From a virus (Duplodnaviria > Caudoviricetes): DNA of 64,000 bases. The translations under genes were made by a program, and so were the position numbers. This document shows, one piece after another, positions 28,972 to 64,000 of this stretch. The first letter of the stretch is position 1. The number at the start of each line of letters is the position of its first letter. The stretch is from IMG/VR virus record IMGVR_UViG_2852501635_000002, positions 9,493 through 73,492 of that record. One strand, written 5' to 3'. The notes under the pieces were generated by a model. The model was given only the letters and a program-made list of their open reading frames with translations, made no database searches and was not told the origin of the DNA.

Positions 28972-29044
28972 GACGTTATTTCCTATGTGTGGCGTGACGT
29001 TATCAGAAGCTCCGAAGGGTGCGACCGACGGGGCTTCATCTTTA

Positions 29045-29331: not shown

Positions 29332-29664
29332 ATGGCTAAATATCCAAGTCAATTACAAGACAAGTTCAATTTACGGCTACCTGATGGCATGAAGGATATT
29401 ATTGCTGAAAGAGCAAAAGCCAATGGACGCTCTATGAACTCTGAAATAATTCAAATGCTACAGGATGTTTTAGATAGCGATAGTAGAGGTGACGTTACTA
29501 CAGATGTGGCTGATAAAAACTATATTGAAGATGATTGGGTGGCAGGGATCAGGGCATATATGGAGTTTAAGAAAGGGGAAAAAGGGCAGACTTTACTAAC
29601 AATGGATCTTGATAAGATAAAAAAACTGAGTGATACGAGACAGAAAAAAGACAATAAAAAATAG
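29332..29664 (+). CDS. Arc/Mnt-family repressor (immI module)
   Basis: DKFNLRLPDGMKD.IAERAKANGRSMNSEI; divergent from arc-ant as in P22 immI. Confidence 0.88.
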   Translation: MAKYPSQLQDKFNLRLPDGMKDIIAERAKANGRSMNSEIIQMLQDVLDSDSRGDVTTDVADKNYIEDDWVAGIRAYMEFKKGEKGQTLLTMDLDKIKKLSDTRQKKDNKK

Positions 29665-29719
29665 CACTTAAGTTAAAATTTATTAAACTAATAACAAATT
29701 AACTAACGAGGATGGTGTT

Positions 29720-30130
29720 GTGAAAAGATTATTAATTACATCTATTTTATCATTATCAGCTTTATCATTAACAGGGTGCGCTAGTGTTTCACCGCCAACA
29801 CAACAGCAAATTGAAAGTGCCAGTTATGGGGCATTGCCTGACGACTATCAAGCTCAAATAAAAAATACAATGAGCGCTATGCTAAAGGATCCGTATTCAG
29901 CTCAATATACATTTCTTCAACCATTTAAAGGATATTCTCAAGATGGCGCTTGGGCACCATCTAAGGGGGGCGTGACTTATGGATGGGTAGCACCAGTTAT
30001 GGTGAACGCAAAAAATAGTTATGGTGGATATACTGGCGCTAAAAGGTATGTGTTTATGTTCTCTAACAGCATACTATATGATGTGACTGGAAATGATGTT
30101 TTTGGCCGAGTTGTGCCAGTAAATCAATAG
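29720..30130 (+). CDS. Lipoprotein moron
   Basis: LTGC lipobox; LKDPYSA and VNAKNSYGGYTG motifs. Confidence 0.8.
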   Translation: MKRLLITSILSLSALSLTGCASVSPPTQQQIESASYGALPDDYQAQIKNTMSAMLKDPYSAQYTFLQPFKGYSQDGAWAPSKGGVTYGWVAPVMVNAKNSYGGYTGAKRYVFMFSNSILYDVTGNDVFGRVVPVNQ

Positions 30131-30156
30131 TAAATCAACATTGAGGTAGCGGTGCC

Positions 30157-30702
30157 ATGGGGAAGATTAAGGTTATTTCTGGAATTTTAGGCGGCGTTGC
30201 GATTATTGCAGCGGTTGCAGCTTTGTCAGTAAATCTTGTTCCTGATGATAAGGCTAATGATAAACATCTAGCTGATTACTGCGCTGAAATGACAAGGTCG
30301 CTAATGAAGTCACCATCATCATATAAATTAGATGAATACTATATACGAGAATTACCACTAACTAGAAATGAGCTTGCAGAGATAGTGCAAATGGCTCCAT
30401 TTAATAATATTGATGATGCAATAGACAATGATAAGCGCGAGAGATCAAAAATTGAGATAATAGAAACATATATGGCTAAAAATGCCATGGGCGTTGAATT
30501 GGTTGGTAATGCAATATGTACTCTAAACAAAACAAACTATGGAAGCGCTGGAAGTAGCTATTCAATAATGAGCTTATCAATAAATGATGAAAATATTGGT
30601 GATATAAATTTAATAACAGCTGAATTAGCGGCTGATAAAAAAACTGGAAGATTGAACAGTAAGTCTGATTACATGAAAAAATTAAATTATATTTTCAATT
30701 GA
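30157..30702 (+). CDS. Membrane-anchored periplasmic protein
   Basis: N-terminal TM; MKSPSS...AKNAMG related to previous ORF. Confidence 0.7.
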   Translation: MGKIKVISGILGGVAIIAAVAALSVNLVPDDKANDKHLADYCAEMTRSLMKSPSSYKLDEYYIRELPLTRNELAEIVQMAPFNNIDDAIDNDKRERSKIEIIETYMAKNAMGVELVGNAICTLNKTNYGSAGSSYSIMSLSINDENIGDINLITAELAADKKTGRLNSKSDYMKKLNYIFN

Positions 30703-30770
30703 TAATATACATTAATTACACATTACAACCCTGCCATTCGGCGGGGTTTTTCATTTTAAGGAGCCGATAA

Positions 30771-33700: not shown

Positions 33701-34163
33701 AGCAGCTGCCACAACAACAGCCGCTTGGACACCTGCGGCAATTATGGCATCAATCGCGTCAATGGGGACAGCGGCGAAAATAGGTTTAGCCGCAATCGCT
33801 GTACTTGGCGTTGGTGCAATTGCTGGTGCTCGTAAAAATGGCGGCCCTGTTGACGCTGGTTCAATGTATCGAGTTGGTGAGGGCGGTAAACCTGAGATAT
33901 TTAAGGCTAACAACGGCCGACAATACATGATACCCGGTGACAATGGAAAGGTTATTTCTAATAAAGATATGCAGGGTGGTGGTATGAATGTGAATGTTGT
34001 CTTTAATGACTATTCATCTGGTGGCCACAAGTTTGATGCACAGGCATCACAAGATGGAAATACGCTAACTATTCAGGCGTTCATTATGGATATGGATAAC
34101 AAAGGCCCTATGCTTCAATCCATCACAAGAAACACATCGGCAACAGCGAGAGCAAGAGGTTGA
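30771..34163 (+). CDS. Tail tape measure protein
   Basis: 1130 aa, QLSQGIASGVLRGEEFNSV, GGPV...VGEGGKPE C-terminus. Confidence 0.93.
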   Translation: MAQVGEIVYQVQMDVRQLLASQQQLEQRLNRMDSSFNRTSQSVNNTERSMQSLSKVAAALTGYLSVSMVASYSEAWTELNNKLSNSVRASESLIDVTQRVFDISQATRSSLDATATLYARLERGTREYNTSAEDLAKLTSIINQGFIVSGATAQEAENAIIQLSQGIASGVLRGEEFNSVAEQGSRLMVALADSLGVSIGQLRKMAAEGKLTTDVVVKGLLSQGDAIGKEFAKTTRTMSQAFQEAGNNLTKFLGENTTIKASINVFSDAVITASKSLDEMVLAVSLVASVVGGRYIAAMGLAIKAKMQSAVAARQEAIANLQAARVAEHNAIMTARKTALDLAAARALVEKAKTEFAAARGTNAEATALANLIAVRSAATTAAINHKQATQAQTAAMANSAAAARAASVSIGLANKALGFVGGPAGIAMAAGAAIMYFYQQAKEAREEAVKLAEGVNQLTAEMKNMTREQKRAESAKLKEALPELKNEVLNTTVAMKQAAEKVRELEADLALAKVGTSKYESITKQLADAQDKLAIATDNATKASNNYSRTKNTISFIQADLNGELKEGIDLLKREISVLPSGAKGWDSYGFSIDRALQKKKEFNGEKISFEWSKEGMDLRKSLEREMKLANAKSEVDKRLLQVDFYIEDKGITDEREIYQLKQIAIATQKAQDAAAERNKTTKESTKATDAAYEALKRQREEIELLNKGYKDGSLEMAKYDAVKALGDTASPKQIEKAEQLAEEKYNIERNLADKKAALELDLVAKAKESHDKQLADLERITKDDVSLTEQAARRKAEIEAEYQQKIAEIKANNAVSPQDDIKGKVDPVQQLKNEHERKLALIREFETEKGAITQRGLELMNAANTQYEQARTDAMYELWRNQSLGNEAAAAALDAFSGSASNALTGIITGSMEASDALRSIGNTVLNSLINTFVQAGIEQAKAAWFGAAAQQSAIAATTAVQTAAIGTQTAVSTAAAATTTAAWTPAAIMASIASMGTAAKIGLAAIAVLGVGAIAGARKNGGPVDAGSMYRVGEGGKPEIFKANNGRQYMIPGDNGKVISNKDMQGGGMNVNVVFNDYSSGGHKFDAQASQDGNTLTIQAFIMDMDNKGPMLQSITRNTSATARARG

Positions 34164-40368: not shown

Positions 40369-40599
40369 TCACTCACTCTTCAAATACTGCACTGATTTTC
40401 CATCCGGCAACTTCTTACTTCTCTCACGATAAAACGTTAATCGTTCATTAAAGTACGCTCGTAAATGTGCTGGTTGTTGTCTTTCAACTTCTGAGGCAAC
40501 AACTGGCATATTGAGGCGTTCTTTATATGCGACACCACTTGCGGCCAAATCGACATTAATCTTGTCTTTTTCTTCTTGAGTTAGGTTTGCGAGGTTCAT
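40369..40599 (-). CDS. holE: DNA polymerase III theta subunit homolog
   Basis: [32 protein letters not shown]. Confidence 0.9.
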
Positions 40600-40773
40600 A
40601 ACAGATCCAGTTAGTTTTTGGAGAGTATAGCAGGGTGGGAGAATTGATGGGACGAATTTGGGACAAGCAACATGAAGTAGCATAAGGCAACTTCAAGTAA
40701 CTTTAGGTAAGGTGGGACGTGTGAACGCTTGGTGAGACTGTATTTAGTTGATATTAAAGCATAATTCTACGCT

Positions 40774-40818
40774 CTTCTAAGCCGTAGGTCACAGGTTCGA
40801 ATCCTGTAGGGCGTACCA
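40774..40818 (+). repeat. 3' half of tRNA-Arg(UCU): prophage attR and probable satellite attL
   Basis: CTTCTAAGCCGTAGGTCACAGGTTCGAATCCTGTAGGGCGTACCA; anticodon loop, T arm and CCA present, 5' half absent. Confidence 0.88.
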
Positions 40819-40983
40819 TTCTCAAGTATTTTAACGTCTACAACAGTCCATAAAATCCTTATAAAATCAGCTATTACAAGAATTCCTAGTGTTTCAAGGT
40901 CTAGTTACGTCTATTGAAATCTACATATATGTGGGGGCATAATTGGGGGCATTATCCCGTTCAATGAAAATTGGTGCCCCCAG

Positions 40984-42195
40984 ATGAAGCTAACAGCCAG
41001 ACAAGTAGAGACTTCCAAGCCAAAAGAGAAAGCTTATAAACTTTCTGACGGAGGGGGCATGTATTTAGAAGTTGCTCCGAATGGTTCTAAGTATTGGCGT
41101 ATGAAATATAGATATGCTGGTAAAGAGAAAAGGCTGGCTTTAGGTGTATACCCATCAATATCACTCGCACAAGCTAGGGCGAAGAGAGAAGAAGCCAAGC
41201 GCATATTAGCGTTAGGTGATGATCCATCTTTAGTGAAGAAAGCAGAAAAGAGAGAGAAAGAATCTCAAGTAAATAATAGCTTTGAAAAAATTACGCTTGA
41301 ATGGCATGACTATAAAAAGCCGAATTGGTCAAAAGGTTATGCGGATGATTTACTAGAAGCCTTCCAGAAAGATATCTTTCCTTATATTGGTAAAGTTAGC
41401 ATTACAGAAATTAAACCGTTAGATATGTTAGAAGTGCTTCGGAAGTTAGAAAAACGCGGTGTGTTGGATAAGCTTAAAAAGATAAGGCAGGCATGTAACC
41501 AAGTATTCCGCTATGCAATTGTGACAGGACGGGCTGAGTATAATCCCGCATCAGAATTAGCCGGCGCACTGTCTACTCCAAAAGCTAAGCATTTTCCTCA
41601 CTTAAATGTGAATGAGTTACCTGAGTTTTTACAGGCACTATCTGTATGTAGTGGAAGTAAGATCACTCAGATTGCGACAAAGCTATTAATGATAACAGGC
41701 GTTCGTACTATTGAGCTTAGAGCTGCTGAATGGTCAGAAATTGATTTTGATAAAGCTATTTGGGAAATTCCAAAAGAACGTATGAAAATGCGTCGCCCTC
41801 ACATGGTGCCATTATCTACACAGGCCTTAGAATTATTCAAAGAAATACAAACCATAACAGGAAAGTTTAAGTATATCTTTCATGGTAGGAATGATGCTTC
41901 TAAACCAATGAGTGAAGCGGCCATAAATCAGGTTATCAAGCGTATTGGTTATGATGGTAGAGCCACAGGTCACGGATTCAGACATACAATGAGCACCATC
42001 CTGCACGAACAAGGCTATAACACTGCATGGATTGAGACTCAACTTGCACACGTTGATAAAAACTCTATTCGTGGAACGTATAACCATGCTCAGTATATTG
42101 ATGGCCGTAGAGAAATGCTTCAATGGTACGCTGATTATATGGATACTTTAGAGAGCGGGGATAATGTTGTCCACGGTAACTTTAAACGTGCTTAA
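40984..42195 (+). CDS. int: P4-family tyrosine integrase
   Basis: LSDGGGMYL, GVRTIELR, HGFRH, QLAH, YNHAQY. Confidence 0.96.
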   Translation: MKLTARQVETSKPKEKAYKLSDGGGMYLEVAPNGSKYWRMKYRYAGKEKRLALGVYPSISLAQARAKREEAKRILALGDDPSLVKKAEKREKESQVNNSFEKITLEWHDYKKPNWSKGYADDLLEAFQKDIFPYIGKVSITEIKPLDMLEVLRKLEKRGVLDKLKKIRQACNQVFRYAIVTGRAEYNPASELAGALSTPKAKHFPHLNVNELPEFLQALSVCSGSKITQIATKLLMITGVRTIELRAAEWSEIDFDKAIWEIPKERMKMRRPHMVPLSTQALELFKEIQTITGKFKYIFHGRNDASKPMSEAAINQVIKRIGYDGRATGHGFRHTMSTILHEQGYNTAWIETQLAHVDKNSIRGTYNHAQYIDGRREMLQWYADYMDTLESGDNVVHGNFKRA

Positions 42196-43218: not shown

Positions 43219-43375
43219 ACAAATCAGTTTATTATTGAGATTGTTTTATTTTAAACAACAAGCCCCCACTCAAAAAACACCTTAAAATATAAACCATAAT
43301 ATGCGTTATTAACCTTATACATTTATGTATAGGGTTTTTTCGCATGTCTTTTCATATCACATTAAGGAAAATACT

Positions 43376-43573
43376 ATGAATAATCTGATTAGGCTTTCAG
43401 AGGTTTTGCGACGCACAGGTTACAGCAAAGCTTGGATTTATAGACTAATTAAAGAAAATGACTTTCCTAAACAAGTCAAAATAGGAGCTCGTTCTATTGC
43501 TTTTGTTGAATCAGAAGTAGATGAATGGATTGCTAATAAGATTGCTGAATCACGTTCTGGTGAGGTGGCATAA
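43376..43573 (+). CDS. alpA: AlpA-family regulator/excisionase
   Basis: LIRLSEVLRRTGYSKAWIYRLI..FPK.VKIG.RSIAFVESEVDEWI. Confidence 0.93.
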   Translation: MNNLIRLSEVLRRTGYSKAWIYRLIKENDFPKQVKIGARSIAFVESEVDEWIANKIAESRSGEVA

Positions 43574-44814: not shown

Positions 44815-45536
44815 TTACCCTATGTTCAATAAAGGATATTGCCTACCAAGTGAATAATTCTCTACTGGCAGGTAATAACGTAAGTTCAACTTACACCACG
44901 ACTAATACGGTAGCTTTAAACTATGGTATTACGGGCAGTCAATCAGCGAAAATTTACGCCAATCAATCAATCCTAACCACCGTTGGAGGATGGGATAACA
45001 GCGATAACCTAAAACGTGGAGAATTTACACCATTTATTAAAGGTGATTTTTCTCACCTTTCTAAAGTCGGGAAATCTCGCTATTTATCGAGTGAAATTGA
45101 GTTTTTACAGTCCATAAAAAAGGGCGGCCAATCGGCTACCCTTGGGAACGTCGATATTAAATACCGAGCAAGTGAGAACTATAAGAATAGTATTCATCTT
45201 GTTATCGGTAAAGATGACAACCTTGAGTTAATACAAAAATGTGCAATACATCACTTGCACTTATGGGTAATTGTTGGCTATAGTGATCAGGCACTAGCAA
45301 AATCTAGTGTCAGGATTGGCGTTCTGAATTTGTACAAGGCGACACATGACGCGCCTAGCGTCTTTTTTTGTGTCAATGCCTACGCACACCTATTAAATGC
45401 GGTATTATATCGCACCGAATCTATGGTGGCGGCAGCAGAGCAACCGAAAGGTTGGCTGGTTTCCTTGTACGCCAGTAACGCCAACTCTACTGTCGTCACC
45501 ACCCCGAAATTGGCGTTTCTGGTGGTGACTCCTTAG
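44811..45536 (+). CDS. Ash-family ORF overlapping c4/CI RNA, with composite N-terminus
   Basis: GYS..ALAKSSVRIGVL, APSVFF, SMVA..EQPKG motifs. Confidence 0.7.
   Translation: MITLCSIKDIAYQVNNSLLAGNNVSSTYTTTNTVALNYGITGSQSAKIYANQSILTTVGGWDNSDNLKRGEFTPFIKGDFSHLSKVGKSRYLSSEIEFLQSIKKGGQSATLGNVDIKYRASENYKNSIHLVIGKDDNLELIQKCAIHHLHLWVIVGYSDQALAKSSVRIGVLNLYKATHDAPSVFFCVNAYAHLLNAVLYRTESMVAAAEQPKGWLVSLYASNANSTVVTTPKLAFLVVTP
45424..45501 (+). ncRNA. c4 / P4 CI-type antisense RNA
   Basis: Closing stem TGGTGGCGGCAG/CTGTCGTCACCA; loops CCTTGTAC (45463) and AACGCCAA (45477) complementary to GTACAAGG (45332, 45541) and TTGGCGTT (45316, 45510). Confidence 0.85.
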
Positions 45537-48141: not shown

Positions 48142-48486
48142 ATGATAACGAAGAATTTTAAAGTTAATTCACTAGCGAATAGCTACGCAGCTGCTATTTA
48201 CCACGATATTACCACACGTAATGGCGGTGATTGGTTTTCGATGAAGGTAGGCAACAAAACGATTGAAGTTGCCATTATTGACGGTGTGAAAGGTATTCGA
48301 ATGCTCGTTGATAGCTATTTGCTGAAAGCCTTAAAAGGGCAATATCCCACATGGGAGGCAGTTGCTATTGGCTTGATAGAGCAATGTGTCATTAATGGAT
48401 ATGTCACAGGTTATGGTCGAGAGGTGTGGCAAAGCATGATTAATGATATGGGCGACTCTTTCGCTGATAAGGGGGCGTTTCAATGA
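48142..48486 (+). CDS. Hypothetical protein
   Basis: ORF coupled to primase. Confidence 0.65.
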   Translation: MITKNFKVNSLANSYAAAIYHDITTRNGGDWFSMKVGNKTIEVAIIDGVKGIRMLVDSYLLKALKGQYPTWEAVAIGLIEQCVINGYVTGYGREVWQSMINDMGDSFADKGAFQ

Positions 48487-51203
48487 AGCCGATTGATGTT
48501 ATCCGTGAGGTGAAGCTGAAAGCTAACGGACAATGGCAAGCTATATTATCTCACCTTGGGGCAGAAGTGCCCCTAAACACGCACACGGCTTGCCCTCATT
48601 GTGGTGGTAAAGACCGGTTTAGATTTGATAACAAGGACGGTAATGGCACGTTTATTTGTAATCAGTGCGGTTCTGGTGATGGATTAGATCTCGTTCAGCG
48701 TGTGTTAGGTGTCAGTGTAACCGAAGCTGCAAAAGAAGTTGCTAACATAATTGGTATTGATACCCGTTCAGCGTGTCCACCAGCCTACCGTCGTTCTGAG
48801 ATAAAAGCACAACAAGACGAACTGAAAGCGCAGCAAGCCGAAAAACAAGCTAACGAGAAGAGAGAGAAGCATAAACGCTTTATTGAACGGTATAACCGCA
48901 CTATTGCCAATGTTCAACGTGGGAGATCTGACTATCTCAAGGCTAAGGGGCTGCATGGTTTTGAAATGGATTTATTACAGGACGGTTCTCTTATCATTCC
49001 ATTATTGGACGCTGGTGGCGTTATTACTGGCGCACAAACTATTAAGCCTAATGGTGATAAGCGTTTGCTGTCAGATAGCGCAAAGTCAGGCAGTTATTAC
49101 CCCATCAATGAGCCTGTAAACGTCTCTACGGTGATTATCGCTGAAGGATTAGCAACCGCCCTAACGTGTCACTTAATCCAACCAGAAGCGCACACAGTTG
49201 CGGCAATTGATGCGGGAAACCTCATTCATGTAGCTAAGGTAATGCGAGTTAAGTATCCAGAGAGCAAGATTATTATTGCTGGGGATAACGATATTAAGCC
49301 AGGCCAAGACAATACAGGGAAATTAGCGGCAGAAAAGGCAGCTAAGGTGGTTAATGGTGTCGCTGTTTTACCCCCTACTGATGATAAAGCCGATTGGGAT
49401 GACTACCGCCTATCACACGGTATTGATGCGGCAAGACAGGCATTTAATGAAATATTAGAGCAGCAAGGAGGCAAGGTGATGATAGAAACTAGGGTAAGCA
49501 ATGAAGTCGTTAAACCTGACCCAATGAAGCCACGCATTGAATCACGTAAAGAGGGGGTATTTCTTGTTACACCGAAAGCCGACAAGGAAACAGGGGAAAT
49601 CATCAATCATGAGCAGTGGTTATCAAATGCTATCAAGCGGATCACTAAAGGTGTTAATGACCTCAATCAAGAGTATTTGATTATTGAGTGGGGGAATAAC
49701 AATGTTCAGGCAATACCGACAGGCGATATAGGAGAGCGTGAAGGATGGCGCACATTAAAAAACGCGGGGTTATTTGTCACTACCAAATCAGGATTAAGAC
49801 AGTCGTTTTCTGATTGGCTGTTACGTCAACCATTCAAAGAGGACTGGAGTATTACGAATAAATCAGGTTGGCACAAAGGCGCATATATCATGCCCGATGG
49901 TTCAATTATCGGCACACCTGAACAACCGATATTTTTTAACGGACAAAGCGCAGCAGCAACTGCCTACAAAGCAAGTGGAACGGTGGAAAGCTGGCGAAAT
50001 GATGTAGCGCGATTGGCTAACGGTAATAGTTTTATGATGTTTACGATTGGCGCCGCATTATCTGCACCGATGACGAGTCTTACGGGGGCTGACAGCTTTG
50101 GTATTCACATTTACGCTCAATCGACAGCAGGGAAAAGTACCACGGCAGATATGGCCGTGAGTTTATACGGTGATCCTGATTTACAGCGCTTAACATGGTA
50201 TGGCACTGAATACGGTATGACTAACGAAGCTGTAGCGCACAATGACGGACTTTTGTATTTGGATGAAGTCGGACAAGGGGCAGACCCTAAACACGTCTAC
50301 AAATCGGCTTACACGCTGTTTAATGGTAAAGGTAAGATCCAAGGTGCGAAGGAGGGCGGCAATAGGCAAGTTCAAAGCTGGCGGACAGTGGCCATTAGTA
50401 CAGGAGAAAAGGATATTGAGACCTTTTTATTAAGTTCGGGTGTGAAAGTCAATGCAGGGCAGCTAGTACGATTACTCAACATCCCTATTGAACGCGCCAC
50501 TGAACTACATGAATGTGAAACAGGGAAAGCCCACGCAGATTTAATTAAGATAAATTGCCGTTCTAGCTATGGGGCCGCAGGACGTTATTGGATTGAATAT
50601 CTATCAAATCATAAAGATGAAGCTAAAGAAGCCTATAGAACTGCACAACAACGCTGGAGTAAATTAATTCCGAGCAGTTACGGAGAACAAGTTCATCGAG
50701 CCAGTGATCGATTCGCTACTATAGAAGCGGCTTTGATAATGGGCCGTGTGATTACTGGCTGGAATGAACAAGATTGTAAGGATGCTGTTCAAGCCGCGTT
50801 TAACGCTTGGATTGCTGAGTTCGGCACAGGTAATAAAGAGATTGAACAGATTAAAGATCAGACGATCGCTTTTTTAAGTACGTATGGAATGAGTCGATTT
50901 GCTCCATTGCCTTATGATGAGCAATCTTTACCTATCAGAGAACTTGCAGGGTACAGAGTTAAATCAAACACGCAGGATGAAGCGCCCATATTATTTTATA
51001 CATTGCCAACAGTATTTAAGAACGAGATAGCCAAAACGTTCAATACGGACACTTTCGCTGATGCCCTGCATAAACTAGGTATTTTAAAAAAGCCTTCCAA
51101 TGGGAAAGGATATCAAGGCAGAACACCGCGTTTGAAACATTTAGGCAACATTCAGCAACGCGCCTATATTTTGATGCTTGTTCCTGATGAAGAGGAGGAG
51201 TGA
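48483..51203 (+). CDS. Primase-helicase (P4 alpha zinc finger, TOPRIM, DUF927)
   Basis: CPHCGGKDRFRFD..CNQCG, AEGLATA, AGDND, QSTAGKST, LDEVGQ. Confidence 0.93.
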   Translation: MKPIDVIREVKLKANGQWQAILSHLGAEVPLNTHTACPHCGGKDRFRFDNKDGNGTFICNQCGSGDGLDLVQRVLGVSVTEAAKEVANIIGIDTRSACPPAYRRSEIKAQQDELKAQQAEKQANEKREKHKRFIERYNRTIANVQRGRSDYLKAKGLHGFEMDLLQDGSLIIPLLDAGGVITGAQTIKPNGDKRLLSDSAKSGSYYPINEPVNVSTVIIAEGLATALTCHLIQPEAHTVAAIDAGNLIHVAKVMRVKYPESKIIIAGDNDIKPGQDNTGKLAAEKAAKVVNGVAVLPPTDDKADWDDYRLSHGIDAARQAFNEILEQQGGKVMIETRVSNEVVKPDPMKPRIESRKEGVFLVTPKADKETGEIINHEQWLSNAIKRITKGVNDLNQEYLIIEWGNNNVQAIPTGDIGEREGWRTLKNAGLFVTTKSGLRQSFSDWLLRQPFKEDWSITNKSGWHKGAYIMPDGSIIGTPEQPIFFNGQSAAATAYKASGTVESWRNDVARLANGNSFMMFTIGAALSAPMTSLTGADSFGIHIYAQSTAGKSTTADMAVSLYGDPDLQRLTWYGTEYGMTNEAVAHNDGLLYLDEVGQGADPKHVYKSAYTLFNGKGKIQGAKEGGNRQVQSWRTVAISTGEKDIETFLLSSGVKVNAGQLVRLLNIPIERATELHECETGKAHADLIKINCRSSYGAAGRYWIEYLSNHKDEAKEAYRTAQQRWSKLIPSSYGEQVHRASDRFATIEAALIMGRVITGWNEQDCKDAVQAAFNAWIAEFGTGNKEIEQIKDQTIAFLSTYGMSRFAPLPYDEQSLPIRELAGYRVKSNTQDEAPILFYTLPTVFKNEIAKTFNTDTFADALHKLGILKKPSNGKGYQGRTPRLKHLGNIQQRAYILMLVPDEEEE

Positions 51204-52187: not shown

Positions 52188-52700
52188 ATGAAAAAAATCA
52201 TGATAACGGCTCTATTGGCTTTATTTTTATCGGGATGTGATAACAACCCGCCAGCACCCTACGGGTTTAAGTGGGGGCAGACTGTGGCGGATATACAAAA
52301 ATTAAATATTGCTGGCGCTAGCGAGTGCAAAGACCCAGCTTGCTCTATTATGGTAACACCTAGCGGAGCACATGGATTAACAACATTAATTTTCTATAAA
52401 GATTCAGGATTGGCACAAGTGGTACACTCAGAGCCACTGAACGAAACCAACAAAGATGATGTAATGGCAAGGTTTAATCATATTAGTAATGAGTTGAAAT
52501 CAATTTATGGTAATCCAACCAGTGAAATAATACGTATTGATGATGAGAATAACTTTATTGACTGTTTAAAACAAATTAGCTGTAGAGATATCAAGGCAGA
52601 ATATAACAAAGATGGTTATCGGGCATTTATCTCAATAGGAACGAGAAAAAAAGACGGGAGATTATTCATTTTCACCGATCACCAAAGACCTCTAAAATAA
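52188..52700 (+). CDS. Lipoprotein
   Basis: LSGC lipobox; APYGFKWG. Confidence 0.8.
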   Translation: MKKIMITALLALFLSGCDNNPPAPYGFKWGQTVADIQKLNIAGASECKDPACSIMVTPSGAHGLTTLIFYKDSGLAQVVHSEPLNETNKDDVMARFNHISNELKSIYGNPTSEIIRIDDENNFIDCLKQISCRDIKAEYNKDGYRAFISIGTRKKDGRLFIFTDHQRPLK

Positions 52701-52711: not shown

Positions 52712-52735
52712 AAGCCGACCTTGAGTCGGTTTTTT
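52712..52735 (+). terminator. Intrinsic terminator
   Basis: AAGCCGAC-CTTGA-GTCGGTTTTTT. Confidence 0.7.
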
Positions 52736-52871
52736 GTTCTTATAGCCCCTATCATATTAATTTTTATAGAAATCTCCCTGTTTTATAGTCGTTTGTATTA
52801 ATCAATTATTGATTATTTTTTAATCCATTATATAATTGTATTGTATATAATTACAGGTTGGATAAATAAAC

Positions 52872-53045
52872 ATGAGTAAGCAAAAAAGAACCTTCAAGCC
52901 AGTGTCAATTGATAGTGAAATAATAGAACGCGTCAAAAAGTTTAAAGAAAAACAGGGTGAAAAAGATTTTTTCATTCAACGAGCACCTATTAGTCAATTA
53001 ATTCAAGGGTTACTAATTAATGCCTTACATAACGAGGGATTCTAA
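52872..53045 (+). CDS. Small RHH-like protein heading the tail operon
   Basis: Hand translation MSKQKRTFKPVSIDSEIIERVKKF...PISQLIQGLL. Confidence 0.6.
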   Translation: MSKQKRTFKPVSIDSEIIERVKKFKEKQGEKDFFIQRAPISQLIQGLLINALHNEGF

Positions 53046-53386
53046 TGGAAAAATTACAACGGTTAGCAAGCACTATAGCCCAGATTTATGTTGATAATTT
53101 AAAAGCTGAAACAGGAGAAACATTAGTAACTTATAACGGTATCACAGGTAAAGTTACCCCTGAATTACTGGCCGCTGGATTGTTTGATAATGCGGTATTT
53201 GCGGTTAAAGCGGATGGAGAAGAGATTGACGTTGAAGGTAAGGCGTATGATTTACTATCCCCGTTAATTAACTTATCAACAAAGCCTTACTCCCTAACGG
53301 GACAGGCATATAAATTGATTAATTTTCTCAATGTGCAGGCACTAAAAGCAGGAAGCACTTTATCAACCTTATCAGTTGTACATTAA
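53045..53386 (+). CDS. Hypothetical protein directly upstream of satellite TMP
   Basis: TAATG-coupled ORF; possible chaperone by position only. Confidence 0.65.
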   Translation: MEKLQRLASTIAQIYVDNLKAETGETLVTYNGITGKVTPELLAAGLFDNAVFAVKADGEEIDVEGKAYDLLSPLINLSTKPYSLTGQAYKLINFLNVQALKAGSTLSTLSVVH

Positions 53387-53402
53387 TCACAGGGAGAAAA
53401 TT

Positions 53403-56400
53403 ATGTATCATGGCGAAGGTTACACAGTATATGTAGATGCCGATACGGCCGGCCTTCTTGAGGCTAACCGTGAAATCGAAAAAGCAAGAAGAAAAATAAA
53501 TGATTTAGGCAACGAAGCAAACACCACAAGCAAATCATTTACTCAATTCAATAAATCAGCAATCGCGGTTTCCAGTGCGTTAAAAATGCCTGAAATAAAC
53601 CGCTTATCACGTCAAATGAGTGAATTGGCGGGGCAAATTGGCGCTGCTTCAATGGCAACAGATAAGGCAACGACTGTTAACGCGCGTTTTACAGGTGTGA
53701 TTAGCAATGTGTCTGGGCTACTAGGGGCGGGATATGTTTCTAATATTGGTAGCGCTACTGTTTCGCTCTTGCAACATACTCAAGGGGCAATTAATGCCAC
53801 ACAAGCCGAGGTTTTACATACTCGCGCTATTCAAATGAAGGCTCAGGCATTGCAAGCTGCTGCCTCCCAAGAAGTGATTAACGCCAAAAATCTTAAAGCA
53901 TCAACACAAGCAGAGCTAAAAGCAGCTCAGGCAGCGTTAGAACACGTTTATTCATTAGAAGGCTCTAATGATATCAAGCAGCGTAATTTAGAGTCACTTA
54001 GGGCACGACAGGCAGCAGTGCTCAAGGATGCTGAAATAACTTATCAAATGACTGCGAGTGAAGAAAATTTGCAGCGAGTGACTAAAGCCAGTAATGCGCT
54101 ACATGCTACGGAAACTAAAATAAAAACGCATTTAGCTACAACCGGAAAAGAAATTGCGCTTGTTGAGGCTAGAGTCGCTAAAGCAAAAGAAGCAGAAACA
54201 CTAGCAACTCAAAAATTAAATGCGGCATTAGCATTAGAGCAAAAAGCGAAAGCCACACTAGCCACTACAACAGACGCGGTGACCGTAGCTAATGGTCGCG
54301 CAGCCCAAGCGGCTAGAAGTCAATCCATTGCTATGCAAGGATTGCGAGGTGTTGTGGGGTTATTAGGTGGCCCAACGGGTGTTTTTATGTTGGCTACTGC
54401 TGGCGTGTATGCGCTATATAACGCGATGAATGATGACACCGCAACGAAAGAGTTTAATGACAGAGTAGATCAGTGGATTGATAAAATTGACGAACTGTCA
54501 GCCAAACAGGCTCGCGCTGTGGCTAACCGCTTAGGCGAGAAGATAGCGGAAACAACCACACAACTAGAGGGACAGAAAAAAAGTCTTTCCAGTGTTAATT
54601 CAGATCTAAAAAGATATGAAAATAGACTTGCTGATATTAATAAAGAGATTCAAAGACAAAAAGAACAAGGTTTTGAAGTAGGTAAGTCTTACGTTCAGGA
54701 TGATATAGTAAAGGAAATCGAAAAACTCACCAAGAAACAGCAGCAGTATGAGCTGATTATTTCAGAAGGTGAGCAGAATATTCGTCGCTGGACGGTATCA
54801 CAAGGTAAAGCCGCTAATATTGCAAAAGAGAGAGCAAAACAAACAGACGAACTCAGCAGAGCGGAATTAATTTATCAACGCCAAGCTAAAGGGATAGTTG
54901 ATGCTAACCAACAATTAGCTAGATCACTAGAGCTAGGCAGTGACGCAGCCGTTAAGAAAGAACAAGCCATCAAAGAGTTAGAAAAGGCTTTAATTGCTGA
55001 TGGTTTTGTTAAAGACTCCGAGTTATTTAAACAAAAAATACAAGAGTTAACGGATGAGCTTGATAAGAAGGCAAGTTTAAACCTTGCTAACTCTCTTGCT
55101 GAGATAGAGCAACGAACACAAGCCCTCACTATTGGCATGAAAGACGGTAAGCCTGCACTGGATGAATACAATGCCTCGTTACTGCTTATGCAAATGGGGA
55201 TAAAAAAAGGTTCGGCTACCTACAATACCGAACTCCCGAAAGCGATAGAGGCAATACGCAATTTACGTGAAGCTCAAGAAGCCGCACTAAATAGCAAATC
55301 AAATGCTAACAAGTCGTTGAAAGCGATTAATAAGGCAAATGATGCCATTAAAAAACAACAGCAACAGACTGAGACGTTAAGAAAAGAATTTGAATTATTG
55401 AGTTCTGGCGCAGCTAACGTAAATAGAGAGATGGCTATTTTTAACGCTGTTCAAAGTCTGGGTGCTGATGCGACAGACAAGCAAAAGAAAGCTATTGCTA
55501 AAGAAGTCGCCGAAGTTTTTGACCTCAAACAAAAAGTCGATGACTTTATTAAGTCGCAAGAAATTACTCCAGAGTTAAAACTTGCAAGAGCATTTAGACA
55601 AGAATCTGAAGAGCTTAAACGCATGTTTGATAATGATTTCATTGATGAAGAAACGTTTAAGGCGTTAGGCAATAAAGCAATGAAGGCATTTGATGCTGGA
55701 ATGGCTGAAATAAAAATAAACGCGGTTATTGACCCAATAACTGAAGCCAAAGGGCAATACGACCCGATACAAGCACTGGCTAACGAACACGCTAAGAAAC
55801 TTGAGATGATCCGCCAATTCGAAACAGAAAAAGGCGCTATTACTCAGCGTGGCTTAGAGTTAATGAATGCCGCTAATACTCAATATGAGCAAGACCGGTT
55901 AAATGCTCAATGGGAGATATGGCGCAATCAAAGCCAAGCCAATCAATTCTTAGCTGATGGGTTGGACGCATTAGGACAGCGCTCTACTAACGTACTCACA
56001 GGGCTATTAACTCAAACACAATCCATTAACGATGCTTTCCGTAATGTCGCCTTAACCATCGTAGACCAAGCCGTTGGCGCTCTGGTCCAAATGGGTATGC
56101 AACAAGTTAAGAATATGATTATGGGTGAAAGTATGGCGACAGCCGCTCAAGCATCTGCATTGGCTCAGGCTGCGGCAGCACAAGCGGCATGGGCACCAGC
56201 GGCATTAAGCGCATCAATAGCCACATTAGGCGCAGCAGTAGCAACGGGAACATCATCATATACGGCGGCTATGGCAGCTAGTAAAACGATGGGGTTGGTT
56301 GCTGGTGCTCGTAAAAATGGTGGACCCGTAAATGCTGGCTCTATGTATCGAGTGGGTGAAGGTGGTAAGCCTGAGATATTCAAAGCATCTAACGGTAGTC

Positions 56401-56633
56401 AGTACATGATACCGGGTGATAATGGTCGAGTTATTAGCAATCGACAAATGGGTAAAGGTGGTAATGGTGTCAGCATGGGTGATATGAACTTTACATTCCA
56501 AGTTCAAGCACCTAATGGCATTACTCAAAAGGAGGCGCAACAAATACAGCAAATGGTGAGAGGTACGGTTTATGACGTACTTGGTAACGAAATGCGTAGC
56601 GGTGGTGCTTTGGAAAAAGTAAGAAGTTGGTAA
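53403..56633 (+). CDS. Satellite-encoded tape measure protein
   Basis: Ala-rich coiled coil, LLGGPTG, C-terminal blocks nearly identical to prophage TMP. Confidence 0.88.
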   Translation: MYHGEGYTVYVDADTAGLLEANREIEKARRKINDLGNEANTTSKSFTQFNKSAIAVSSALKMPEINRLSRQMSELAGQIGAASMATDKATTVNARFTGVISNVSGLLGAGYVSNIGSATVSLLQHTQGAINATQAEVLHTRAIQMKAQALQAAASQEVINAKNLKASTQAELKAAQAALEHVYSLEGSNDIKQRNLESLRARQAAVLKDAEITYQMTASEENLQRVTKASNALHATETKIKTHLATTGKEIALVEARVAKAKEAETLATQKLNAALALEQKAKATLATTTDAVTVANGRAAQAARSQSIAMQGLRGVVGLLGGPTGVFMLATAGVYALYNAMNDDTATKEFNDRVDQWIDKIDELSAKQARAVANRLGEKIAETTTQLEGQKKSLSSVNSDLKRYENRLADINKEIQRQKEQGFEVGKSYVQDDIVKEIEKLTKKQQQYELIISEGEQNIRRWTVSQGKAANIAKERAKQTDELSRAELIYQRQAKGIVDANQQLARSLELGSDAAVKKEQAIKELEKALIADGFVKDSELFKQKIQELTDELDKKASLNLANSLAEIEQRTQALTIGMKDGKPALDEYNASLLLMQMGIKKGSATYNTELPKAIEAIRNLREAQEAALNSKSNANKSLKAINKANDAIKKQQQQTETLRKEFELLSSGAANVNREMAIFNAVQSLGADATDKQKKAIAKEVAEVFDLKQKVDDFIKSQEITPELKLARAFRQESEELKRMFDNDFIDEETFKALGNKAMKAFDAGMAEIKINAVIDPITEAKGQYDPIQALANEHAKKLEMIRQFETEKGAITQRGLELMNAANTQYEQDRLNAQWEIWRNQSQANQFLADGLDALGQRSTNVLTGLLTQTQSINDAFRNVALTIVDQAVGALVQMGMQQVKNMIMGESMATAAQASALAQAAAAQAAWAPAALSASIATLGAAVATGTSSYTAAMAASKTMGLVAGARKNGGPVNAGSMYRVGEGGKPEIFKASNGSQYMIPGDNGRVISNRQMGKGGNGVSMGDMNFTFQVQAPNGITQKEAQQIQQMVRGTVYDVLGNEMRSGGALEKVRSW

Positions 56634-56699
56634 TTAAAAGCGTGGATAAAAACCATAATAGGGCAGATTTCTGCCCTTTATAGTATTGAAGGGTACATA

Positions 56700-57068
56700 A
56701 TGATAAAGATAAAAGTATCTAAAAGGAAAGGTCGCAATCAATCATTTCTACAATATTGCCAGCATGTAGATCAACGAGTATCACGGGCTATGCAACGGTT
56801 TCTTTTCGATGCTGGAGCACAATCCGCAATTTATACGCCTATCGATACATCAACATTGATTAATAGTCAGTTTAGGGATGTTACTGTTAATGGTACAAAA
56901 ATAACGGGACGTATTGGTTACTCCGCCAGCTATGCCGTTTATGTGCATGATCCGAAAGTTAAGCAGAAATTTAAACGACCAACAGCTAAAAAAGAGTTCT
57001 TGAAAAAAGCGGTCGAGGAAACGCTACCTAATTTAACTAAGTATATTCATGAAGAATTGAAGAGTTAG
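56700..57068 (+). CDS. HK97 gp10-like neck/tail-completion protein (homolog of 23558-23929)
   Basis: YTPIDTSTLINSQFR..TGRIGYSA.YAVYVHDP.VKQKF.R.TAKKEFLK shared with prophage gene. Confidence 0.88.
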   Translation: MIKIKVSKRKGRNQSFLQYCQHVDQRVSRAMQRFLFDAGAQSAIYTPIDTSTLINSQFRDVTVNGTKITGRIGYSASYAVYVHDPKVKQKFKRPTAKKEFLKKAVEETLPNLTKYIHEELKS

Positions 57069-57075: not shown

Positions 57076-57095
57076 ACTTTCGTGAACAGTACGCG
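57076..57095 (+). promoter_or_regulatory. Putative pac-site mimic
   Basis: 20/20 identity to terS 16005-16024. Confidence 0.65.
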
Positions 57096-57433
57096 CGTGG
57101 AAGGAAATATGCAAAAAACAACCAAAAAGAAACCAACCATTATTTTTATGATGTACCGACAATGCGCCTAATTGTGACGTGTGAACAATCCATCAACATT
57201 CACATAAGAGCCGATAGAGTAACAGGGGCAATCATGAGGAGTTTGTGAGGCAAGCAATCATTGAGAAGCTAAAAAAAAGCAACAGCACAAATAGCTAAAT
57301 CGCTATATGTATGTGTCAATAACTTGGTTATAGCTATATATATTGTGTTTACGTTAAAAAAATAGACAGGTAATTACAAGCTCATAATGATTAGCCCCTA
57401 GACAAGATAAATATATTCAGTATTATTTATCCC

Positions 57434-57500
57434 AACAGTGCCCCTCATAACCTCTACGTAGAACGGAGAAATCTGGTTTGCGATACGTTTGGGGCTTTCT
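57434..57500 (+). ncRNA. Candidate RNA antitoxin upstream of Abi gene
   Basis: Nested stems, TAGACA-16-TATTAT promoter at 57399-57426, T-rich tail. Confidence 0.6.
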
Positions 57501-57533
57501 TTTATCTACTATCTGATAATTTTCCATGCTGCT

Positions 57534-58529
57534 ATGCACCCTCTAAAACCTCATCTAACGTATTTTGACCAAATAAAAAAGCTAGAAAAACGAGGAATGA
57601 GTTTTGAGGATCTACCTCCTGAGCAGGCGGTAAAGAAAATAATGAATATTGGATATTACAGGCTATCTGGGTATTGGTATCCATTCCGTAAGTTAAAGTT
57701 AATCCCACCAGTAGCACCCGATGAAGCCAGACGTGAAGAAACATTCCTTGAGGGTACAACCTTTACAACGGTATACGCACACTATTTATTTGATGTAAAA
57801 CTAAGAAGTTCTATTTTTTATGGAATAGAACGAATTGAAACTTATCTTAAAGCAAAAATAGCTTACGAACTAGGTAAAGTATCCCCTACGGCATACAAAG
57901 ATAAGAATATCATCCAATACAGACATCACTACCGACATGATACATGGCTAGAAAAGTTAGATTCTTTAATAGAGCGAAATAGTGATAAAGATTGTATACG
58001 ATGGAATTTAGATAAGTATGGGGATATTCCTATATGGGCTATCGTTGATATTTGGGATTTCGGTACAATGTCTCGCTTCTACGGAATGCTTGAAGATAAA
58101 TACAAACATCAAATTTGTAAATCGCTTGGCTTTCTAAAGCCTAACTCAGCAAATGTAAGAGATGGACTGAAAACAGCATTAGAGCACCTTAATACAGTTA
58201 GAAACAGGTGTGCCCACCATGCGCGTTTATGGAATACCGATTTTTCAGACTCAAAAATTAGCATCGATGTGTTAGATAATATTGATTTAACAGCCTCGCG
58301 CTTGTCTCCAAAAAGCCCTGAACTATCAAGAATGGCAGGTATCATATTTTTAATATGGAGTCTGACCAAGAGAATAAGTTGTAATTCTACATGGCTAAGT
58401 TCAGTAAATGATCATTTAGAAAAACATCAGGGCGTTATTCCGTTTAATTCAATGGGATTCGATAATAACAATATCTCAGGATTAAAAAATCTATTGGATA
58501 AGGAAAAAGAACAATCAGCCCAATCATAA
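57534..58529 (+). CDS. Abi_2 (AbiD/AbiF) HEPN abortive infection protein
   Basis: IGYYRLSGY, IERIE, PIWAIVDIWDFG, RNRCAHH (RxxxxH). Confidence 0.92.
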   Translation: MHPLKPHLTYFDQIKKLEKRGMSFEDLPPEQAVKKIMNIGYYRLSGYWYPFRKLKLIPPVAPDEARREETFLEGTTFTTVYAHYLFDVKLRSSIFYGIERIETYLKAKIAYELGKVSPTAYKDKNIIQYRHHYRHDTWLEKLDSLIERNSDKDCIRWNLDKYGDIPIWAIVDIWDFGTMSRFYGMLEDKYKHQICKSLGFLKPNSANVRDGLKTALEHLNTVRNRCAHHARLWNTDFSDSKISIDVLDNIDLTASRLSPKSPELSRMAGIIFLIWSLTKRISCNSTWLSSVNDHLEKHQGVIPFNSMGFDNNNISGLKNLLDKEKEQSAQS

Positions 58530-58810
58530 GCCAACCCAAATCAAATAAACTTTAATGATTTTCAGGCGCGCTAGCAATAAGTTTTCGGACACGTTAGAAA
58601 GGTTGTAAATAGAGGCTGATAGCGACAAATATAGACATTAAATCCTAACAAATCCTAACGTTTTTCTAATACCTAGATCCTAAGTTTTCTTAAGGTAAAT
58701 TGCGCATTCAATGCTAAGATTTGCTAAGGTTTTACTATCCACTTAGTATTATGATTAGATAGCTGATAACTTCAGTATATGTTGGGAGTAGCTGTAATGA
58801 TAAAACTAAT

Positions 58811-61022: not shown

Positions 61023-61547
61023 TAGGTCGCCTTGAAATTAAGGGGACGTGAGGCTCTGAAATCGGAGGCTCGTCACTGGCTGGCAATATTCCAATAATGG
61101 CTACGAGGTAAAAGTAACCACAATGCAAATAAGCACTCTGGATAAATATCAATAAGTTATCTATGCTGAGAGATAAGATTACAACAAAGAGCGACGGCAA
61201 GATTACGGCAAGGTATTAACAATCAGGTTTCAGTCGGTCAATTTGACCGTTAGCAATAAAAACAATGTGTTGCCAACTCTTACCATTGGTCACTGAAACG
61301 ATGACCAATGAGCGTTAATCTGGTTTTGTTACAGAATTAAGTATTATCAATCAGTTGTATTTTGATTCCGTCGATTTACCGGAATTAAGTATAATCAACA
61401 GGTTATATCTACATACGGGATAATCCCGTATCATCATGGATAAATTAACGTTTAGATCACCCCTAGAAATTGGAATTATTACCTATACAACCTGAATCCT
61501 ACCAGTGTTTTATTTTAACCAATAGCTTATATTGTGATGGTATCAAG

Positions 61548-62887: not shown

Positions 62888-64000
62888 ATGGAGATTAAAA
62901 TGAGTATAGTTTATGTGCCATGCATAAAAAACGGGATGAATGATATAAAGGCTTTATTAAATTTAAAGGAAGAGTCATCAGGTTATGTCATGCCTCTAGT
63001 GTTAACAGCAGGAACGCCTTATGGAGGGAATGGTGTAGATTTAAAAAAAGACTACTTACTAGATGAGTTTATACATAATTGGGATAAGCCATTCATTGTA
63101 GATGCCTCTAGGGCTGATTCAGATAGTGAGTCACTTTATAATTCCTACCACAACCTGACATCACAGCACGACAATTTTTCGGGTAAAATCACTTACTATT
63201 CAAGTATATATTCAATAAATAAAAAATTAATTCCAGCTATAAGTTGGCAGCTAAATGATGATATGAGAAATATTGTTCAACTCTCTCTGTATTTAGAGCA
63301 GCAATATGAAAAAATAGCAATAATCATTGATCCTAATAATAGTGAGAATTTAAATAGATTAGATACGTTGCTTTGTTTGTTTAAAGATAACTCAAGAATT
63401 ATTGTATTGCTTAATTATAATTCTATATATAACAAAGAATTACCTCAAGAGCATAAAGTTTTACCAGTGATTAGTAAATTAACCTCGCGTGGAGTGGGGA
63501 GTATAGTATTACTAAGTTCTTCATTCCCTCCAGTAAAACCTGCAATAAAAGATACATGGATACAGTCAGAGAACACTGATCTACTGTGGCAACTAACAAT
63601 GATGAATAAGTCACCCAGAGATAGCGTTATCTTATATGGTGATTATTCAGCCACATCACCTAATTCAGCAACAGAATATATACAAGGGATGCAAATAATT
63701 CCAAGTGTGACTTATTTTAGAGGCGGTATTTGGTATCAAATAAAATCAGGTGTAGACAAAGAATTTTCAAAATATAAAGACATAGCAAACGAACTAATCA
63801 GATTGGATTTCTTTCATGGCTCAACATTTTGTTGGGGTGCTGAAAATATTTATGATATTGCAACCAATAGAGACAGGAAAGGAGGCACCCCAGGAACATG
63901 GAATGGGTATAAAATTAATGTTCATGTAGAGGAAACGATCAGAATTTTAAAAGACTATTACAGTACTCCACTTGAAAATTACGATGAAGATAGTGAATAG
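62888..64000 (+). CDS. Beta-family protein (T4 beta-like)
   Basis: YVPCIK...AL, SSSFP, YGDY, W...H pattern. Confidence 0.7.
   Translation: MEIKMSIVYVPCIKNGMNDIKALLNLKEESSGYVMPLVLTAGTPYGGNGVDLKKDYLLDEFIHNWDKPFIVDASRADSDSESLYNSYHNLTSQHDNFSGKITYYSSIYSINKKLIPAISWQLNDDMRNIVQLSLYLEQQYEKIAIIIDPNNSENLNRLDTLLCLFKDNSRIIVLLNYNSIYNKELPQEHKVLPVISKLTSRGVGSIVLLSSSFPPVKPAIKDTWIQSENTDLLWQLTMMNKSPRDSVILYGDYSATSPNSATEYIQGMQIIPSVTYFRGGIWYQIKSGVDKEFSKYKDIANELIRLDFFHGSTFCWGAENIYDIATNRDRKGGTPGTWNGYKINVHVEETIRILKDYYSTPLENYDEDSE

Follow-up and report, generated by a model that had tools for sequence, protein, structure and literature searches.

Chimeric tail assembly by a phage satellite has been shown only for the PLEs (elements resembling phage-inducible chromosomal islands) of Vibrio cholerae, which encode a tape measure protein (TMP), the chaperone TAC, and the hub protein BhuB (Mathur, Boyd et al., Nature 2026, PMC12987554). 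As reported there, the PLE TMP goes into virions, deletion of tmp cuts transduction by 96 to 99.9%, and the way in which the satellite TMP is chosen over that of the helper is left unexplained. The legend of Extended Data Fig. 10 in the same report gives predicted tmp genes in PLE-like elements and in phage-inducible chromosomal islands that form capsids (cf-PICIs), including enterobacterial satellites, and these genes are proposed there as a sign of tail manipulation. Satellites with a TMP are also described among the EPIPs of Mycolicibacterium, whose authors tie altered tails to the TMP (PMC12822802). Here we describe an operon of four genes (52872-57068) in IMG/VR record IMGVR_UViG_2852501635_000002. 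The window analyzed is a 64,000-nt stretch of this 73.5-kb record (positions 9,493 to 73,492), and all coordinates below are window positions. The operon encodes p57 (57 aa), p113 (113 aa), a TMP (1,076 aa), and a tail completion protein (TCP; 122 aa), and lies in a satellite island at ~40.98 to ~62.1 kb. We hold it to be probable, with considerable room for doubt, that this island is a helper-dependent PICI-type satellite of the Gram-negative kind that builds chimeric tails with a dedicated tail-core operon.

Like the PLEs, the island has no capsid genes and has its own TMP, a small gene directly upstream of it, and a TMP length near that of the helper's, with the rest of the tail presumably coming from the helper. 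However, its backbone is of an unrelated PICI type with AlpA and a DUF927 primase, its helper would be a siphovirus and not a myovirus, it has no hub gene, p113 lacks a TAC fold, and about half of the elements also carry a TCP. The C-terminal module of its TMP is 80 to 89% identical to phage TMPs, compared to ~20% identity between the TMPs of PLE and ICP1. The cf-PICIs make their own capsids and packaging proteins whereas none are found in this satellite; the two groups may nonetheless overlap. The Gram-negative PICIs described by He et al. (2024, PMC11364771) have an integrase, AlpA, and a primase in the same order and variable defense cargo (AbiD in the island) after the replication module. 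Gram-negative PICIs as a type carry no capsid, tail, or lysis genes and measure ~10 to 15 kb, whereas the island has a TMP and a TCP and spans at least 21 kb, from the integrase to near 62.1 kb, where conserved synteny with a sister record stops. Its conserved tail-core operon stands where the PICIs of He et al. carry packaging genes or Tai. Likeness to the P4-like elements is limited to the P4-type integrase, AlpA, an Ash-family domain, and the primase; the psu, delta, and sid families were unmatched (PHROG and Pfam) in the scanned open reading frames (ORFs) of the satellite. The EPIPs are actinobacterial, have a serine integrase as well as terminase, adaptor, stopper, and capsid-related genes, and are reported to have tails much longer than the helper's (PMC12822802), whereas the satellite TMP found here is helper-like in length. 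The literature searched gave no capsid-less PICI-type family with a p113-TMP core and no satellite-encoded TCP, although such elements may be listed in the supplements to the papers on the PLEs, Tai, and the cf-PICIs. Within that literature, the satellite-borne TCP and p113 are new elements, whereas the chimeric-tail strategy is already known from the PLEs.

The tail-core operon of the satellite island

The record is classed as one provirus, but the window holds two elements, a siphovirus prophage (1 to ~40.7 kb) followed by the satellite island. The island starts with a P4-type tyrosine integrase gene (40984-42195; PHROG 1, E = 7e-76; Pfam Arm-DNA-bind_3, Phage_int_M, and Phage_integrase). 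Behind it are the gene of an AlpA-family regulator or excisionase (43325-43573; Pfam PF05930, 74.3 bits against a cutoff of 21; PHROG 66) and the satellite replication gene, which encodes a primase-helicase with zinc ribbon, Toprim, and DUF927 domains (48483-51203; PHROG 1139, E = 5e-159; Pfam DUF927, Zn_Ribbon_Prim, and Toprim_3). All three are on the + strand. ORFs of 40984-64000 were scanned with PHROGs and/or Pfam, and the negative results on virion families cover the scanned ORFs. Capsid, portal, terminase, tube, tip, and lysis families gave no match, and the TMP and the TCP were the sole virion families matched.

The operon genes are also on the + strand, in the order p57 (52872-53045; no family found), p113 (53045-53386; PHROG 19131, function unknown), TMP (53403-56633; PHROG 1107, E = 2.7e-131; PDB 9occ_M, "tail tape measure protein gp18," E = 2.4e-50), and TCP (56700-57068; PHROG 5, "tail completion or Neck1," E = 1.2e-11), the last being of the Neck1/HK97 gp10/lambda gpZ class. 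The TMP ORF extends from 53376 to 56633, and its likely start is the ATG at 53403, which stands behind a GGGAGA ribosome-binding site 16 nt past the p113 stop. By tblastn, 340 phage records match this TMP. A preliminary description of the locus, made from its letters without database searches, had proposed a capsid-less PICI-like satellite without tube or tip genes, and the integrase, AlpA, primase, and negative scans bear this out. It had also assigned a TMP of ~1,076 aa to the satellite and one of 1,130 aa to the prophage, both of which match PHROG 1107, with the satellite TMP being full-length and under selection. The homology that it saw between 56700-57068 and the prophage gene 23558-23929 was confirmed (59% identity over 98 residues, E = 3e-41), and the PLE precedent that it invoked is real (PMC12987554). 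However, where it spoke of neck and tail-completion proteins in the plural, only one such gene, the TCP homologue, is present.

The operon recurs in related islands. A TMP scan of species genomes gave seven confirmed loci from 26 pattern matches, four satellites and three prophages (L007 to L009). The satellites, from Proteus myxofaciens (L003) and Providencia (L004 to L006), have the order pri ... lipoprotein, p57, p113, TMP, TCP. A p113 profile picked 13 loci from viral contigs, and p113 was directly upstream of a TMP gene in all six of the 13 that were inspected. In a distant lineage (L016, L018, and L021), p113 is 43% identical and the primase 52 to 57% identical, the TMP is 998 aa long, and the TCP is kept. 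A p113 match was also found in 12 of 401 species genomes from the family of one Providencia genome, one of the 12 being a fragment of only 22 residues. When nine of these 12 loci were fetched, the TMP gene followed p113 directly in every case (9/9), within an AlpA/primase backbone, and the TMP measured 903 to 1,245 aa in eight and 210 aa in the ninth.

All four operon genes are under purifying selection, and the p57-p113-TMP-TCP module is a conserved core and no prophage remnant. The four genes are intact in the six elements compared, with no internal stop in any of the six TMPs. For element pairs with a dS above 0.1, dN/dS values were 0.03 to 0.31 for p57, 0.04 to 0.27 for p113, 0.09 to 0.31 for the TMP, and 0.05 to 0.21 for the TCP, compared to 0.09 to 0.41 for the primase. 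Against L003, the TMP had values of 0.03 to 0.35 in every 120-codon block.

Some relatives depart from this pattern. In Providencia huashanensis (L006:9953-13335), the satellite TMP is broken into two ORFs, one of 395 aa and one of 736 aa, and at L050:10343-10975 it is truncated, this being the 210-aa case. In Providencia sp. Me31A (L004; G003:C4 near 129-130 kb), the integrase appears to be only 30% identical to that of the window and the tail module is conserved, which suggests integrase swapping within the satellite family.

The p113 protein is acidic and satellite specific, and each of the loci examined has its gene directly upstream of a TMP gene. It is also rare, with six clusters among 5.8 billion proteins and 19 matches among 1.84 billion cluster representatives; of the 19, about ten are full-length (~108 aa). 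No match was found in Pfam, the PHROG functional families, or PADLOC, and the ESM Atlas gave no usable match; an AlphaFold2 (AF2) model was confident (pLDDT of 77). Of the features of gpG/gpGT-class proteins, p113 has the position upstream of the TMP and lacks the TAC fold or sequence family. The TMP start follows the p113 stop by only 16 nt, which leaves no space to extend p113 by a -1 frameshift. The most economical guess is that p113 is a candidate TMP chaperone or selectivity factor, because its position is fixed and it is coupled to the TMP across quite different TMP types. Less favored is the alternative that p113 inhibits the helper TMP in the manner of Rta, since, in the PLE report, the conserved neighbor of tmp is the chaperone and Rta is unique to one variant (PMC12987554). 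The p57 stop overlaps the p113 start, and p57 is conserved ahead of p113 in the relatives. It had no database match (PHROG, Pfam, PADLOC, or a PDB search with the p57 profile), and, to judge by its strand-helix-helix pattern, it may be a small DNA binder of a ribbon-helix-helix-like kind that regulates the operon. The earlier suggestion that 52872-53386 may encode a regulator plus a chaperone is plausible from position and conservation, although p113 resembled none of the known chaperone folds.

A mosaic tape measure protein and the tail completion protein

Comparison with other TMPs shows that the satellite TMP is a three-part mosaic composed of a private N terminus, a ruler body, and a C-terminal module exchanged with phages. 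Residues 1 to 50 had no match in any phage TMP compared. Residues 51 to 640 are 84 to 88% identical among Proteus and Providencia satellites, compared to 44% identity to the TMP of prophage L007. Over the last 436 residues (from 641 onward), identity is 80% with L007, 66% with L008, 52% with L009, and 42% with the neighboring prophage. The Providencia satellites L004 and L005 carry another C-terminal module that is only 47% identical. Between the satellite TMP and that of the neighboring prophage (30771-34163, + strand; PHROG 1107, E = 0), BLASTP aligns the C-terminal parts only (42% identity over 419 columns, E = 4e-79), a stretch that includes the AGARKNGGPV...VISN block. The motifs QLSQG (residue 162) and LRGEEFNS (residue 172) of the prophage TMP are both missing from the satellite TMP. 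The preliminary description had seen this loss of an N-terminal domain together with common C-terminal blocks, and its count of 72 identical nucleotides in a 73-nt tract (55821-55893, + strand, versus 33312-33384 in the prophage TMP gene) was also correct.

The C-terminal module bears marks of traffic between satellites and phages at the nucleotide level. In P. myxofaciens, the satellite L003 and the prophage L007 reside in the same genome, and their TMP genes are 85.8% identical over 1,348 nt at the 3' end, compared to 64 to 70% upstream of that stretch. In the window, the 73-nt tract stands far above the surrounding ~60 to 70% identity between satellite and prophage, and it resembles the prophage more than it does the sister satellite L003, in which only 35 nt match at 91%. 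For both of these reasons, the tract is best read as the product of gene conversion. Assembly graphs of two public runs branch exactly at the tract to prophage-type sequence. It appears to be a smaller footprint of the same exchange that is seen at the 3' ends of L003 and L007.

The extreme C termini of the TMPs fall into two types, A and B. Type A (...EMRSGGALEK.RSW or similar) is found in the window satellite, L003, prophages L007 to L009, and Morganella phage IME1369_01. Tip genes of the lambda-like M/L/K/I(/J) kind are found in L007, L008, and IME1369_01, and the observation on type A tips covers these three, since the L009 locus stops at the TMP. Type B is found in the neighboring prophage, which has a different tip gene set, and in satellites L004, L005, L016, L047, and L049. 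In phage 80alpha, the TMP C termini bind the tip protein Tal (PMC11661146). Taken with the type A C terminus, this means that the docking end of the window satellite would be matched to phages of the L007/L008 kind with a lambda-type tip and not to the adjoining prophage. The idea that the tail proteins are matched to the helper therefore holds in part. It fits the L007/L008 phages and is not supported for the neighboring prophage, whose module is 42% identical with another C terminus and other tip genes, and a near-identical satellite stands beside a different prophage elsewhere.

The TCP has 801 homologues, the named ones of which are called "HK97 gp10 family phage protein" by NCBI. Its likeness to lambda gpZ, SPP1 gp16.1, HK97 gp10, and 80alpha gp51 (as described in PMC11661146 and PMC11099176) includes PHROG 5, the NCBI naming, and the position of its phage paralogue, to which the predicted topology may add; Pfam PF04883 was matched weakly, by one of nine TCP members (E = 0.017). 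The paralogue in the neighboring prophage (23558-23929, + strand; PHROG 5, E = 7.5e-14) lies directly before a PF23842 tail terminator gene, which is followed by the major tail gene. This is the lambda gpZ position, and Morganella phage IME1369_01 has the same TCP-terminator-major tail order. The satellite TCP differs in that it is satellite borne and that its gene sits downstream of the TMP gene. Phage TCPs align to residues ~25 to 122 of the satellite TCP only, which means that it has a private N-terminal segment of ~24 residues. The AF2 model, at a pLDDT of only 66, has helices at residues 10 to 45 and 97 to 121 and strands at 54 to 63 and 66 to 75, which is the layout reported for 80alpha gp51. 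No PDB match for this model came from Foldseek at an E value of ≤0.001, and PDB sequence searches with the TCP alone and with the TCP profile gave nothing meaningful.

The lumen of the 80alpha neck contains a TCP monomer, which caps the DNA end and brings together the strands and helices at the N termini (residues 1 to 37) of three TMP copies (PMC11661146). In SPP1, both the head-binding interface and the delivery of DNA to the cytoplasm require gp16.1 (PMC11099176). All TMP N termini examined here start with a strand and then a helix. Of 20 satellite loci, 11 were found with the TCP profile to have a TCP; the nine without one include L022, which has only ~1.5 kb past the TMP. One position of the TMP strand is A or G in seven of seven N termini examined from TCP-carrying islands (...V-D-A-D, ...I-H-G-E, and ...I-E-A-D), compared to M or L in five of five phage TMPs and M, L, or I in eight of the nine satellites without a TCP. 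The prophage L007 has a satellite-like TMP body together with a phage-type N terminus and a TCP that is 97.6% identical to that of the window prophage. The TCP and the TMP N terminus thus appear to co-vary, the islands with their own TCP being those whose N-terminal strand departs from the phage consensus. Such a pattern fits a co-adapted pair and also fits the 80alpha neck, because the TCP binds the TMP N termini there.

The neighboring prophage, the junction, and the cargo genes

The prophage encodes a Q-like antiterminator, lysis genes, a terminase, and a portal. Its tail genes include, besides the TCP gene, the tail terminator gene (23926-24294; Pfam PF23842, Phage_tail_terminator_3), the major tail protein gene (24359-25114), the TMP gene with its type B C terminus, and tip genes of PHROGs 384, 396, 329, and 469. 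Between the DUF6246 gene and the TMP gene are ~4.9 kb of inserted genes (25853-30771), including two leftward ORFs (27401-29064). In L009 and Morganella phage IME1369_01, the TMP gene comes directly after the DUF6246 homologue.

The stretch between the prophage and the satellite integrase (40369-40983) contains a gene like holE (DNA polymerase III theta) and a partial tRNA-Arg(UCU) gene (40759-40818, + strand). Of the tRNA gene, only the part that begins with the anticodon arm and closes with the 3' CCA is present, and it scores 18.7 bits with the Rfam tRNA model, under the gathering score. ARAGORN found no whole tRNA, and the Rfam model fits from the anticodon stem onward only. The fragment is a single copy in the 73.5-kb record and is an att-site remnant at the prophage/satellite junction. 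A 96%-identical copy of the satellite TMP was found in another record beside a quite different prophage. That record has the same junction of holE-like gene, tRNA fragment, and integrase, with the different prophage on its left. Because the same junction adjoins different prophages, the adjacency of satellite and prophage is attributed to a common integration hot spot, and the provirus call merges two elements.

The satellite also has AntA, Ash, and ORF6N antirepressor-like genes and encodes a ProQ/FinO-like protein. Two Rfam RNAs, isrK (45291-45368; 65.7 bits) and a C4 antisense RNA (45419-45506; 71.2 bits), adjoin each other upstream of the ORF6N antirepressor-like gene, either inside the Ash-family ORF or behind it. 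The pair suggests antisense control of an antirepressor in the style of P1 and P7. Ahead of the tail operon is a gene (52188-52700, + strand) for a predicted lipoprotein of 170 aa, whose translation has a signal peptide with an LSGC lipobox and which differs between satellites (36 to 85% identity among relatives). A terminator scan placed a terminator-like hairpin (52712-52732) 3' of this gene, and a promoter-like site (52809-52836, + strand; TTGATT, 16 nt, TATAAT; 10 of 12 positions) lies between it and p57. The promoter-like site is a consensus match only, since the number of such sites in the region is no higher than in shuffles.

Behind the TCP gene is a variable cargo cassette (57095-58580, + strand) with an AbiD/Abi_2 gene (57489-58529; PADLOC AbiD, E = 7.4e-58; Pfam Abi_2). 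It is outside the tail module. In otherwise near-identical satellite contigs from two wastewater runs, the cassette is missing, the joint running from 57095 to 58580 with 60 other letters instead. The cassette is also absent from or replaced in L003 to L006, and L012 has a 36%-identical Abi_2 homologue in its place. The segment just after the TCP gene is thus a variable defense slot. A 75-nt element is 96% identical at 57429-57503 and 11435-11509, upstream of two different defense cargo genes. One is the AbiD gene of the satellite; the other, in the prophage, is BstA-like and comes just behind the terminator of the Q antiterminator. A 44-nt inverted partial copy is at 61117-61160, and no Rfam family matched the element at the gathering score. 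It may be a common leader or a recombination handle for moron cassettes. Past the end of synteny with the sister satellite, an open-ended gene for a "Beta protein" (62888-64000; PF14350; PADLOC beta/PD-Lambda-2_C) runs off the record end and may be part of a 3' cargo region or of the chromosome. An RNA-labeled public run has the whole stretch in one contig at flat depth, which gives no indication of transcription, and no reads aligned from a raw-read RNA run under the same species label. The two wastewater assemblies without the AbiD cassette are metatranscriptomes with a near-identical module, and they are uninformative on operon expression.

Possible roles of the operon and their significance

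From the gene identities, conservation, selection, mosaic structure, and co-variation computed here, we infer incorporation into particles and a benefit to the satellite along the following lines. In the late program of a compatible siphovirus helper, the satellite TMP would nucleate tail assembly on the helper tip complex via its phage-derived C-terminal module, and the helper tube protein would polymerize along it. The p113 protein probably keeps the TMP soluble or favors the satellite TMP over the helper's. At the head-proximal end, the satellite TCP would cap the private N termini of three TMP copies. The resulting chimeric tail would have its tip, fibers, tube, and terminator from the helper and its inner, ejected core (TMP plus TCP) from the satellite. 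The likely benefit would be satellite transfer that is independent of the helper TMP and that escapes blocks on that TMP, such as tail-assembly blockers and injection-exclusion proteins. A further proposal, which we offer tentatively and regard as appreciably less likely than the chimeric tail itself, is that the private TMP N terminus and the satellite TCP form a lock-and-key pair that, with p113, acts as a selectivity device for the satellite's own TMP over the helper's.

Several observations weigh against a chimeric tail. The right end (attR) was not found, in that no convincing direct repeat joins 40.3-41.1 kb to 61.7-62.9 kb; the best candidate is 13 nt long and within the integrase ORF. 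Comparison by blastn with two candidate prophages gave no cos or pac site common to the satellite and a candidate helper. For the satellite versus the neighboring prophage and for L003 versus the ~59-kb P. myxofaciens prophage contig, only the TMP/TCP similarity and short unrelated matches were found. The PHROG and Pfam scans, made without Rpp or Ppi models, gave no small terminase or packaging-redirection gene. A near-identical C-terminal module was present in a co-resident prophage in only one of three genomes checked. In the other two, the best co-resident match to the satellite's module was 47% (Providencia G003), or there was none (G004), so that many satellite hosts would be without a well-matched prophage. 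As for p113, Foldseek against PDB and BFVD (E ≤ 0.001) showed no likeness to known tail assembly chaperones, and an hhalign comparison of its family with three ORFs close to the TMP of the prophage reached probabilities of ~1%. The TCP is not essential to the strategy, since nine of 20 satellite loci are without it. One of these nine, L055, has the "private" strand type, and the co-variation as a whole rests on about three independent TMP lineages.

The same genes could serve another end. The satellite TMP, with p113 and the TCP, might compete for helper tips and tube protein and leave helper tails defective or miscapped, which would amount to interference or population-level defense and not transfer. 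A phage-like C-terminal module would allow docking on helper tips, and small tail-assembly blockers are described in satellites and prophages, namely, Tai (PMC11364771), Tab, which acts via the TMP C terminus (PMC10884400), and Rta (PMC12987554). The operon also occupies the slot just downstream of pri that is the PICI immune region according to He et al. (PMC11364771), and the AbiD cassette follows it. However, a decoy needs a docking domain only, yet all 1,076 residues of the TMP are constrained, TMP lengths stay in the phage range (903 to 1,245 aa), and the private N terminus co-occurs with a dedicated capping protein, as a working tail core needs. We therefore judge a tail poison unlikely as the main role, although poisoning and chimeric tails can coexist. 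A slightly smaller share of our confidence goes to the idea that the TMP and TCP mainly change entry, routing satellite DNA into cells that exclude the helper TMP, for instance, lysogens with exclusion proteins, so that the advantage would lie in entry and not in assembly. Routing of SPP1 DNA to the cytoplasm depends on the TCP gp16.1 (PMC11099176), blocks directed at the TMP exist (PMC10884400; PMC12987554), and the satellite TMP (1,076 aa) is so near in length to those of related phages (1,055 to 1,130 aa) that tail length is probably not the point. On the other side, the window yielded no exclusion gene directed against a TMP. This idea has the same structural premises as the chimeric tail and differs from it in selective benefit only, and the present evidence does not separate the two.

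The TMP gene could instead belong to a prophage fragment in decay or to recently captured cargo that now serves no function, since such genes are long and often survive in prophage remnants, and decay is seen in L006 and L050. Yet a TMP gene followed by a TCP gene without tube, terminator, and tip genes is no phage order, and the same module is found in the same place in islands whose primases are only 41 to 57% identical. In addition, none of the six TMPs has internal stops, and dN/dS is well below 1. The remnant was rejected on synteny and selection, and we consider it very improbable.

Chimeric tail assembly by the satellite is thus the reading that we carry forward, and it has consequences beyond this record. 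The annotation lesson is that a provirus call can fuse a satellite with an unrelated prophage and that tail-gene similarity to a neighbor does not identify the helper. For satellite biology, the family brings the strategy of an own TMP to ordinary PICI-type islands of Enterobacterales, in the Proteus/Providencia group, with three handles for its study: the partner protein p113, a TCP that co-varies with the TMP N terminus, and a swappable tip-docking module that records which phages have been exploited. If the proposed roles are true, this would be the first satellite to supply a complete ejected tail core, and the exchangeable C-terminal module would let the lock-and-key device be retargeted to helpers with other tail tips. 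The family would then serve as a tractable model, from enterobacteria, of how a satellite TMP is selectively incorporated, the "unknown and probably conserved mechanism" that was left open by the PLE work.

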